A stretch of DNA of 56,776 nt from Candidatus Methylomirabilales bacterium (lineage in GTDB: Bacteria > Methylomirabilota > Methylomirabilia > Methylomirabilales > CSP1-5), in contig JBHIAH010000011.1 of the NCBI GenBank assembly GCA_046758505.1, forward strand, positions 1 through 56,776, given 5' to 3'. Positions 19,663-56,776 of the stretch are shown one piece after another. The translations under genes and the position numbers were made by a program. The notes under the pieces are model-generated. The model ran no database searches and had not been told where the DNA came from. It saw only the letters and a program-made list of their open reading frames with translations. Position 1 is the first letter of the stretch, and every line of letters starts with the position of its first letter.

Positions 19663-20106
19663 GGCCGGAGTGGGCCTATAAGCCGGGTTCTGTGTTCGCC
19701 CGAAGGCGAACGGTGGTCATTCCTCTGGGTCCCGCATTGCTGCGGGACTCTAGCGGCCTACCCGTTCCGCCTGCCTTGCGGGCACGAGAGCGGGCCACTC
19801 TCCTCCCCGCTCACGCTCGATGAACGCCAGCGAGGAAGCGGAACCTATTTGGCCTTGCTCCGGGTGGGGTTTGCCAAGCCAGCCCGTCACCGGACTGCTG
19901 GTGCGCTCTTACCGCACCTTTTCACCCTTACCCCGCGGACAGCCCTTTTGAAGAAAGAGAGCAAAGGCTGCCGGCGGGGCGGTATATTTTCTGTGGCACT
20001 TTCCCTGGGGTTACCCCCGGTGGGCGTTACCCACCACCCTGCCCTGCGGAGCCCGGACTTTCCTCCCCGATCGAGGATCGGAGCGACCACCCGGCCCACT
20101 CCGGCC
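19663..20106 (-). ncRNA. rnpB: RNase P RNA, type A
   Basis: Minus strand has GAGGAAAGTCCGGGCTCC, AGTGCCACAGAAA, AGGGTGAAAAGGTGCGGTAAGAGCGCACC, GGCAAACCCC..GGAGCAAG and ACAGAACCCGGCTTATAG; ends pair as P1 (GGCCGGAGTGGGCC / GGCCCACTCCGGCC). Confidence 0.97.
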
Positions 20107-55234: not shown

Positions 55235-55319
55235 CCCCTTCTCCTCCTTTCCCCGGTTGGAGGCCCGCCGAGAGGCCTGCGGCAACCGGGGGAGCACCCG
55301 GCGCCACCGAACCCAATCA

Positions 55320-55348
55320 AGCATAGGTCCAGGGTCGCTGCTTCGCAA
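55320..55348 (-). promoter_or_regulatory. putative sigma70 promoter
   Basis: TTGCGA-17 nt-TATGCT on the minus strand. Confidence 0.5.
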
Positions 55349-55534
55349 TTCTTTTTTCGAGGAGGGAAGTACACCGAACGGAGGATGAAGCGAAGGGACC
55401 GAGAAACAGGAGGCCCCGGTGAAGGCCTCAGCCGCTGGCGGCCGTTCACCCCTTCCCTTTCGGGCGGAGATGTGAAGATTTGAGGAGGCAGGCGTGACGA
55501 AGGGCCCCCTGGGCCCGCGAGCGCGGCAGGAGAA

Positions 55535-55804
55535 CTACCGGGGTCGCCGCACGCTTTCAGCCTCTGTCCGGCCCTGCACCGGCTGCACCGCCGCTGCCTC
55601 CCACCAGGCCGAGATGCGCCGCGGCCGGGTCATGACCGGCTGCCGCGTGTACACATCGAAGAGATTCTGGGCGCACTCGGGGCAGTAGGCGATGCCCTCA
55701 GGGGCATAGCCGCAAGCGGGGCAGCAGACCGCCCCACAGTGGAGACACCCCCATTCCTCCATCACCGACCGTAACGCTTGTCCACACCCACACATCCGAG
55801 CCAT
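55535..55804 (-). CDS. small 9-Cys zinc-finger-like protein (89 aa)
   Basis: TAAGGAGG RBS; CGC...CLHC...CCPAC...CPEC. Confidence 0.8.
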   Translation of the reverse strand: MARMCGCGQALRSVMEEWGCLHCGAVCCPACGYAPEGIAYCPECAQNLFDVYTRQPVMTRPRRISAWWEAAAVQPVQGRTEAESVRRPR

Positions 55805-55859
55805 CGAACCCTCCTTACTGGAAAGAGCCAGAGAACTAATCGATCGAGCCGACACGACC

Positions 55860-55892
55860 AAAAAAATGGGCCGCAGGGTTCCCCGCGGCCCA
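55860..55892 (-). terminator. intrinsic terminator T2 of the attenuator
   Basis: TGGGCCGCGGG-GAA-CCCTGCGGCCCA region forms a hairpin followed by T7. Confidence 0.85.
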
Positions 55893-55895
55893 AAT

Positions 55896-55933
55896 AAAAA
55901 AAGCCACGGGGCAGCTCATGTCTGCCCCGTGGC
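55896..55933 (-). terminator. intrinsic terminator T1 of the attenuator
   Basis: 12-bp stem GCCACGGGGCAG/CTGCCCCGTGGC, 7-nt loop, T7. Confidence 0.9.
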
Positions 55934-55961
55934 GAAATCCGACAGCCCGCAGTCTGTAGTA

Positions 55962-56039
55962 CTACGGGCCGTCCGCCCTAGGGCAGACGCCACGTACGGC
56001 TACTACTACTGCGGACATATGCACGAATCGAGTCACCAT
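55962..56039 (-). CDS. valine-rich attenuator leader peptide MVTRFVHMSAVVVAVRGVCPRADGP
   Basis: AAGGAG RBS; 7 of 25 codons are Val, including GTA GTA GTA GCC GTA; lies between the promoter and the terminators. Confidence 0.8.
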   Translation of the reverse strand: MVTRFVHMSAVVVAVRGVCPRADGP

Positions 56040-56059
56040 CAGCTCCTTCTGTGCCACCC

Positions 56060-56088
56060 CTTATACGATGCCTCTCCCTTCCTGTCAA
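56060..56088 (-). promoter_or_regulatory. near-consensus sigma70 promoter
   Basis: TTGACA-17 nt-TATAAG on the minus strand. Confidence 0.85.
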
Positions 56089-56249
56089 GCACTTTTTCAC
56101 CCGACCCCCCCCGGTGCCCATCATCCTCGAGATGAACCCTATTCGGAAGACACCCCGGTCGGCCGGGATAACAAAGATCGCAAGAACGGCGAGCGCACCT
56201 CCTCTCGGGACTGGAATCACGTCTGCTCTTGGCTCAGCTTTTGAGGAGA

Positions 56250-56776
56250 TCAGCGTGAGGGTCCAGAACAGGCCTTTTGGGAATAGTCGGCGGCGGCCCT
56301 GACGAACGCCTCAAATAACTTCAAGTGGCGTCGGTCCTGATCCGCCAGCCGCTCGGGGTGCCAGTGCACCCCAAGAACGAATGGACTACCAGAGACTTCA
56401 AATGCCTCGATCATGCCGTCGGAAGCAACCGCGCTCACCCGACAGGACTGATCGAGCGCCTTGACCAACTGATGATGCCGGCAGTTCACCGGCAATGATT
56501 CTTCTCCGACGATCCGATGCAGGATACTCCCTGGTGTGAGGCTTACCGAGGGCATCGTGTCACCCTCTTCCCACGTCCCCGCATGGATGTCGGCGGCGTC
56601 CTGGCAATAGGAGAGGTCCTGATACAGGCTCCCCCCCAACGCCACCGCCATGAGCTGCATGCCGCGGCAGACCCCCAAAACCGGCATCCCCCGCTCGAGG
56701 GCTCCCCGCAACATCTCGATCTCGAACAGATCCCGCTTTTCGTCAATGGCTCCGCACTTCTCAAGAACGATCTCTC
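56250..56776 (-). CDS. peptidase C26 / gamma-glutamyl hydrolase (PuuD-like), 5' end outside the window
   Basis: PVLGVCRGMQL nucleophile elbow, VNCRHHQ, GVHWHPE. Confidence 0.88.
   Translation of the reverse strand, partial: EIVLEKCGAIDEKRDLFEIEMLRGALERGMPVLGVCRGMQLMAVALGGSLYQDLSYCQDAADIHAGTWEEGDTMPSVSLTPGSILHRIVGEESLPVNCRHHQLVKALDQSCRVSAVASDGMIEAFEVSGSPFVLGVHWHPERLADQDRRHLKLFEAFVRAAADYSQKACSGPSR

Follow-up and report, generated by a model that had tools for sequence, protein, structure and literature searches.

The window, the whole stretch of 56,776 nucleotides that was analysed, carries on its minus strand a promoter-like site, a short leader open reading frame (ORF), two hairpins each followed by seven uridines, and a small gene. 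The promoter-like site, the leader ORF, both hairpins with their U7 runs and three complementarities can be read directly from the sequence. The features are as follows:

56060-56088 (-): predicted sigma-70-type promoter, TTGACA-17-TATAAG, from sequence
56043-56048 (-): predicted Shine-Dalgarno (SD) sequence AAGGAG of the leader ORF; GGAG occurs there in most family members
55962-56039 (-): leader ORF, (M)VTRFVHMSAVVVAVRGVCPRADGP*; likely start GTG at 56036, i.e. 56036-55962
55995-56009 (-): control codons GUA GUA GUA GCC GUA (Val11-13, Val15)
55974-55988 (-): antiterminator strand, coding for V-C-P-R; 13 predicted pairs with 55934-55920
55941-55973 (-): 13-pair hairpin inside the antiterminator, carrying the leader stop codon (folding; arms retained in the family)
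55933-55903 (-): first predicted terminator, T1 (terminator scan, folding); 12-pair stem, 7-nt loop, core GCCACGG / CCGUGGC, U7 at 55902-55896
55892-55867 (-): second predicted terminator, T2 (terminator scan, folding); 11-pair stem including a closing U-A pair, 4-nt loop, U7 at 55866-55860
55911-55901 with 55891-55881 (-): cross helix of T1 right arm and T2 left arm, a predicted alternative structure (folding)
55535-55804 (-): first downstream gene, 89-aa protein with nine invariant Cys; SD AAGGAGG at 55816-55810

A promoter scan under a strict rule requiring T at the last -10 position gave no match, and it is because of this rule that TTGACA-17-TATAAG was missed. TTGACA was located 95-130 nt ahead of the V-C-P codons in 19 of 21 Val leaders. 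The frame of the leader ORF, its Val run, the C-P pair and the stop were retained in relatives, and GTA accounted for 54 of the 67 Val codons across the 21 Val leaders, against 6.9% in the long ORFs of the genome. A short ORF with an SD sequence and clustered control codons, as found here, is the mark of a leader-peptide attenuator; the antiterminator and leader peptide that the earlier note had assumed were both located by sequence and folding.

Stem energies of -26.4 kcal/mol for T1 and -21.8 kcal/mol for T2 were calculated by folding. The stems are 10 bases apart and the U-runs approximately 36 nt apart, placing two intrinsic terminators, predicted from sequence, between the leader ORF and the first gene. 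The cross helix comprised 11 pairs, three of them G-U, at -20.0 kcal/mol, and is followed by AACCC rather than a U-run. The earlier note had described a 12-bp stem with U7 followed by a GC stem with U7, and this 11-bp pairing between their arms ahead of AACCC; both descriptions proved exact, on the minus strand. Five terminator-like sites were present in 55300-56300, compared with 0.8 ± 0.9 in shuffled sequences, and the fold of the 211-nt leader had a z score of -6.8. Only two of 300 pair-shuffled T2 stems paired with the T1 right arm as well as the real T2, and among the 46 terminator-like hairpins of the genome a value of -12 or better was reached only by T1 itself and one relative of the same element. 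At the gathering score of Rfam the window yielded no match other than RNase P (class A gene, 19663-20102 (-)), and none of relevance was found at E<=1 in 18 loci. After the U-run of T2, a third partial arm at 55859-55853 (-) matches the T2 right arm imperfectly; its counterpart in locus L019 could form eight perfect pairs. Pairing of this kind would stabilise the open state.

The 89-aa product of the first downstream gene is a predicted double-zinc finger. No Pfam or NCBIfam family exceeded its cut-off for this protein, whose family had matches in 136 of 251 genomes of the phylum. A structural model gave pLDDT values of 76-89 over residues 1-50; the best structural match, a weak one, was a RIM zinc finger (Z 5.9, rmsd 1.7, 47 aligned), followed by FYVE domains, and a Foldseek search with the model returned no match at E<=0.001. 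Further downstream lie a hypothetical gene, a gene with a D-glutamate-cyclase domain and hydantoinase/oxoprolinase A and B, which may or may not belong to the same transcript, given a terminator-like hairpin at 55429-55410. The first gene is thus a predicted zinc finger and not one that makes or charges the sensed amino acid. The ilvB gene lies elsewhere in the genome, and its upstream region differs from the Val leader: it holds a promoter-like site, a short ORF headed by an SD sequence, and hairpins of a different kind (G000:C4:57810-58090 (-)). The idea that an ilv operon once stood between T1 and T2 was rejected, as no relative has a gene there and ilvB is located elsewhere behind a different upstream region.

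A second copy of the zinc-finger gene occurs in the genome at G000:C40:4598-4747 (+), and no such leader was seen upstream of it. Among more distant relatives, 36 loci with the zinc-finger gene (L184-L219) gave no match to the hairpin pattern; the pattern misses some leaders, since L184 visibly carries a Val leader with a weak tail. In L186-L198, also more distant relatives, the zinc-finger gene comes after a Fis-type activator gene. Zinc-finger homologues in L188, L190 and L191 continue, in frame, the end of a larger protein that resembles a 2-oxoacid:ferredoxin oxidoreductase beta subunit; a link to branched-chain keto acids is possible.

The switch was followed by constrained folding of growing transcripts with defined ribosome positions and not by full-length equilibrium folding; equilibrium folding with the T1 right arm fully emerged gave T1 at nearly every ribosome position and did not display the switch. 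With RNA ending at the end of the T1 left arm, the antiterminator formed with the A site at codons up to 14-15 and was lost at codons 17-18. Beyond that point T1 is predicted to form. Antiterminator and T1 were mutually exclusive in constrained folding and were switched by the position of the ribosome, as in an attenuator. At the same transcript end, the equilibrium fold without translation also favoured the antiterminator.

With the antiterminator held, the cross helix dominated until the RNA was out to 55870, at which point only the final 2-3 bases of the T2 right arm had yet to emerge, and T2 won at 55868. The earlier note's proposal that the freed T1 right arm disables T2 was supported in folding of growing transcripts, in that the cross helix came first, but not at full length, where T2 was approximately 5 kcal/mol more stable. 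With nothing held, the fold flipped to T1 plus T2 at 55870, even with the ribosome stalled, and T1 overtook the antiterminator at equilibrium by 55906. For these reasons both gates have to be kinetic. Kinetic gating is usual for attenuators.

Our preferred reading, at a probability of roughly 0.7, is that the locus is a valine-sensing leader-peptide attenuator with two chained predicted terminators, both of which would be opened by one stall. If a ribosome stalled at the GUA codons, the upstream strand would be free to capture the T1 left arm, and the freed T1 right arm would in turn capture the T2 left arm before the T2 right arm is made. Polymerase leaking past an intact T1 would meet a free T2, which would presumably act as a fail-safe. 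If the ribosome moved on while polymerase crossed the interval of ~36 nt between the U-runs, T1 could re-form and T2 be released, so that the stall would be sampled twice. Transcription of ~36 nt takes 1-2 s at typical speeds. A shortage of charged tRNA-Val would likely switch on the small zinc-finger gene.

T2 might instead be an independent, partly efficient terminator that imposes a fixed factor on output, its core being shared because of some other constraint, for instance a protein or polymerase factor that reads the stem. The greater stability of T2 over the cross helix at full length fits this explanation. Set against it, the cross helix can form before the T2 right arm exists and leaves no toehold, and its conversion to T2 faces a barrier of approximately 12-14 kcal/mol (calculated without coaxial stacking). 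We consider an independent T2 quite improbable; further evidence on both sides is given where it arises below.

The Val leader was matched in all 14 other genomes of the family. Of the 15 family Val leaders, seven have a complete T2, three (L003, L005, L015) keep just its left arm, and five, which are near-identical, have lost it. Among the seven complete cases the U-run was displaced in five and directly followed the stem only in L001 and L012. The very low leak and high induction ratio put forward in the earlier note are predicted effects, and eight of the 15 leaders have an incomplete T2 or none. Loose matches to a left arm alone arose by chance in 31% of shuffled spacers, and for this reason only the three named cases are cited as such.

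At the level of the order, 66 genomes were searched with a pattern combining the antiterminator strand and the T1 left arm, which produced many chance matches. Forty regions were chosen by eye for a leader-like appearance and not for T2, and 58 leaders were kept by a script requiring T1, at least four U after T1 and an in-frame stop. A second terminator was then called without reference to any motif, wherever a hairpin had six or more pairs, an energy of -10 kcal/mol or better and no fewer than 5 U in 9 nt; it was present in 23 leaders and absent from 35. The 23 are kin and represent about 6-7 independent groups. In every one of them the T2 left arm matched the T1 right arm: the left core GCCRCGG was exact in 20 and had one change in three, and 159 of 161 core cells could pair with the T1 right arm. 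At 21 loci, no more than 23 of 300 shuffled stems had an energy as favourable as the one observed; the figures for the other two loci were 42 and 99. The loop, inner stem and spacer of T2 varied freely, but its left core did not. The GGCAGAC portion with which the antiterminator pairs is missing from T2.

Folding of these 23 leaders gave the antiterminator in all of them, with 13-16 pairs. When 18 more bases were covered it was fully lost in 13, the others keeping 6-7 pairs. The cross helix was kept in 23 of 23 leaders with the T2 right arm three bases short, and at full length T2 beat it in 14. A relay is thus favoured by conservation and by the folding of the two-terminator leaders, as well as by a variant with no U-run after its first hairpin (see below), but the block on T2 is predicted to be kinetic only.

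The covariation check proposed in the earlier note gave no signal for the cross helix. The alignment comprised 33 rows, made up of 20 of the 23 two-terminator leaders and 13 loci found by pattern. The T2 stem covaried across relatives (0 of 500 shuffles). For the cross helix 96.3% of cells were paired, a value reached by 258 of 500 shuffles, and its seven core pairs had no two-sided change; a covariation signal is missing because the core hardly varies. One pair of T2 switches between A-U and G-C (13 versus 7) while its partner base in T1 stays U, which pairs with either, a pattern that is telling without amounting to proof. No variant with a different core was found in the two collection scans, both of which enforced the core. 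The T1 core is also invariant in leaders that have no T2, so another cause for its conservation is possible, and an independently acting T2 gains some support from this. A DNA-binding site as the reason for the repeated core was rejected, since loop lengths range from 4 to ~20 nt.

These data also bear on the explanation that T2 is a relic of terminator duplication, weak or inactive here, whose matches are due to descent from T1, with T1 alone attenuating. The identity of the left cores of T1 and T2, the lack of covariation in the cross helix and the decay or loss of T2 in eight of 15 family Val leaders would all be expected of a relic, as would tandem hairpin copies in metagenomes (L110, L120; at least three copies of the hairpin, each with its U-run, behind the ends of genes and without an evident leader). 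Covariation of the T2 stem, however, indicates that it has been selected as a hairpin, and the T2 core is kept across families and in records from other phyla, although its loop and spacer show no relation to those of the local T1. On balance a relic appears unlikely, and the most direct argument against it comes from the family designated f9.

For this Rokubacteria-type family, the search used a pattern that joined the antiterminator strand to the left arm of the first hairpin; it hit 74 of 251 genomes, some of them by chance. Thirty loci chosen automatically, 20 chosen by eye and five from hairpin patterns yielded 43 distinct leaders passing the filter, 42 of them readable. A Leu-rich leader ending LPGLPGAS precedes a PPDK-like gene in many genera (L236-L239, L243-L289); the gene was assigned by Pfam on one locus, and about 20 of the 43 share its N-terminus. 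In all 42 leaders the first hairpin had 0-2 U in the next 8 nt and the second had 5-9 U in 10 nt, so that the first is unlikely, judging from its sequence, to terminate by itself. The left core of the second hairpin was nevertheless exact in 42 of 42, with spacers of 12-25 nt that are only 32% alike. The antiterminator strand preferred the first hairpin (-23.5 versus -15.3 kcal/mol), the margin exceeding 3 kcal/mol in 40 of the 42 leaders. Since the first hairpin has no U-run, pairing of its right arm with the left arm of the second appears to be the sole route from leader to terminator, and the leader would have no effect if the second hairpin acted independently. Nothing else argues as strongly as this exact match behind a hairpin with no U-run against T2 being simply left over from a duplication.

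The 58 leaders share one chassis with Val, aromatic (W/F/Y) or Gly-rich peptides, and their targets encode a zinc finger, a sigma-54 activator, a DAHP-synthase-like protein, an acyl-CoA dehydrogenase, malate synthase and a class-V aminotransferase. Aromatic codons precede the DAHP-synthase-like genes, which were assigned by N-terminal identity to the TIGR01361 gene of the genome. A target matched to the sensed amino acid, missing for the Val leader, was therefore found in sister leaders, in this aromatic group and in the Asn-rich leaders before asnA and aspS-like genes described below. A sister Val leader with T1 only (G000:C9:27330-27680 (+)) is followed by genes for an acyl-CoA dehydrogenase and for other proteins of CoA metabolism, and the same arrangement of T1-only Val leader and acyl-CoA dehydrogenase gene was observed in five relatives (L049, L063-L066). 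Val leaders with T1 and T2 stand before a sigma-54 activator with a Rossmann-like N-terminus in L019 and L233-L235, with no zinc-finger gene between; in L074 a Val leader with T1 and only the left arm of T2 is separated from the sigma-54 activator by a zinc-finger gene. Locus L232 has a hairpin with no obvious leader.

Three DAHP synthase genes, the first of them in the genome of the window (hairpin at G000:C44:18492-18515; L225, L226), are preceded by a lone T2-like hairpin and U-run, the leader ORF and T1 being missing. Such lone hairpins are in keeping with a T2 that terminates on its own account, but the genome has a second DAHP synthase, which softens the case as counter-evidence. The close relatives L067-L073 and L227 keep the full aromatic leader.

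Two Gly-rich leaders before class-V aminotransferase genes (L082, L084) have an SD sequence and start codon at the place of the T2 left arm, with which the T1 right arm could pair at -19.0 and -23.5 kcal/mol. In some DAHP leaders an extended T2 stem reaches the SD. Both arrangements, like the three family members that keep only the T2 left arm, suit the explanation that this arm acts as a lock holding the T1 right arm in the open state, or that the hairpins act after transcription, by controlling how ribosomes reach the next gene or how stable its RNA is. At the present locus, by contrast, T2 has its full U7 and sits ~45 nt before the SD of the downstream gene, and loose matches to an arm alone are frequent by chance, as noted above. 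A lock or post-transcriptional role is accordingly very improbable as an account of T2 in the window.

Scans of genome and metagenome collections with patterns that enforced the core gave 12 genome loci and 63 metagenome loci, including many chance coding matches, repeats and duplicates, and 14 leader-like loci were taken further. Each of the 14 has an upstream strand complementary to the T1 left arm (-15 to -28 kcal/mol). Their targets include aspS-like and asnA genes after Asn-rich leaders, the others being ABC ATPases, a GTPase and an aminotransferase; one record of 30% GC is titled Deltaproteobacteria and one Chloroflexota. As the core was enforced by the search pattern, these loci are evidence of spread and not of covariation. 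Asn-rich leaders with the same double terminator precede aspS-like or asnA genes in metagenome contigs L111, L117, L159, L121 and L123. In L099, a record titled Anaerolineales, two spaced hairpins of the core and a third left arm lie before a kinase-like ORF.

A wider proposal can be put forward only tentatively, and its parts are rather unlikely all to hold together. One uncatalogued chassis (core GCCACGG / CCGUGGC) may recur in Methylomirabilota, Chloroflexota and Deltaproteobacteria, its sensing peptide (Val, aromatic, Asn, Leu or Gly) being interchangeable. The duplicated terminator may provide kinetic proofreading by sampling the stall twice, and the series from T1 only, through T1 plus T2 and a U-less hairpin plus T2, to T2 only may depict a his-type relay arising by terminator duplication. 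PPDK, malate synthase, the sigma-54 activator and the zinc finger may all be under amino-acid control.

The earlier note knew of no such relay among classical attenuators. The his attenuator of E. coli and Salmonella does have one, with hairpins AB, CD and EF alternating with BC and DE; as outlined in the available part of that account, uridines follow EF only (PMC10989985). The Val leader resembles his in having a control-codon leader peptide and a chain of alternative helices that carries the state of the ribosome to the final terminator (PMC10989985); here the chain is predicted by folding and is conserved. It differs from his in that the intermediate hairpin, T1, also has U7, and in its Val codons, the lack of an Rfam leader match and a non-biosynthetic target. 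The f9 variant follows the logic of his exactly, only the last hairpin having a U-run. A leader-peptide attenuator with two coupled U-tailed terminators was not found in searches of the open-access literature; subscription papers or supplements could hold some.

The trp, ilv and leu attenuators are described with 1:2, 2:3 and 3:4 helices and one terminator (PMC4615214, PMC6123439). As in those systems, the Val leader has an SD sequence, a short ORF with a run of a single amino acid, an antiterminator strand at the 3' end of the ORF and a GC-rich terminator with a U-run (PMC4615214, PMC6123439). Short motifs used in several pairings are reported to stay conserved over long distances in attenuators (PMC1262725), and the multi-pairing core observed here is conserved likewise. 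Unlike trp, ilv and leu, the present leader has two terminators and an antiterminator that encloses a 13-pair hairpin, and the targets of the chassis include a zinc finger, a sigma-54 activator, PPDK and malate synthase. Single terminators are likewise described in the available text of PMC5794164, PMC6123439, PMC1262725, PMC4615214, PMC5314783 and PMC11857589.

The Bc1 c-di-GMP riboswitch of the Bacillus cereus group is described as having a pair of intrinsic terminators, separated by 28 bp, one after the other in a single leader; there T2 stays folded when T1 opens and can mask the response, the two being uncoupled (PMC11218506). This precedent favours an independent T2. Unlike Bc1, the Val leader would be read by a ribosome and not by a ligand aptamer, and its T2 left arm matches the T1 right arm; no c-di-GMP aptamer was detected upstream in Rfam scans of the window and 18 loci. 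Whether T2 forms regardless of T1, as in Bc1, depends on the stage considered, the cross helix being predicted during synthesis and T2 at equilibrium. The rimP leader of some Gammaproteobacteria has two predicted tandem terminators, the first with a potential antiterminator; unlike the Val leader, it has stems with inverse motifs, and the available part of that report describes no leader peptide and proposes no relay (PMC2965389). Anti-TRAP (rtpA) of Bacillus subtilis is a small zinc-binding protein induced by uncharged tRNA through T-box control (PMC10327191). Its likeness to the zinc-finger target is one of analogy only, as searches gave no sequence or fold match.

The Val leader thus likely works as a classical attenuator combined with a his-type relay in which the middle hairpin is itself a predicted terminator. 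The hairpin relay is already known from his; what appears to be new, against the open-access literature searched, is the predicted coupling of two U-tailed terminators behind a leader peptide. A counter-point is that the target has no known link to valine. If the reading is correct, a leader can hold two real stop signals and still be inducible, the second being the slave of the first. Such a leader would be a compact natural device for keeping leak low or for screening out short-lived ribosome pauses, and could be taken over into synthetic switches. The reading would also define an attenuator family that is absent from Rfam, occurs in uncultured phyla and has targets beyond amino-acid synthesis, and valine-shortage induction would be the first functional hint for a zinc-finger family with matches in more than half of the phylum genomes searched.
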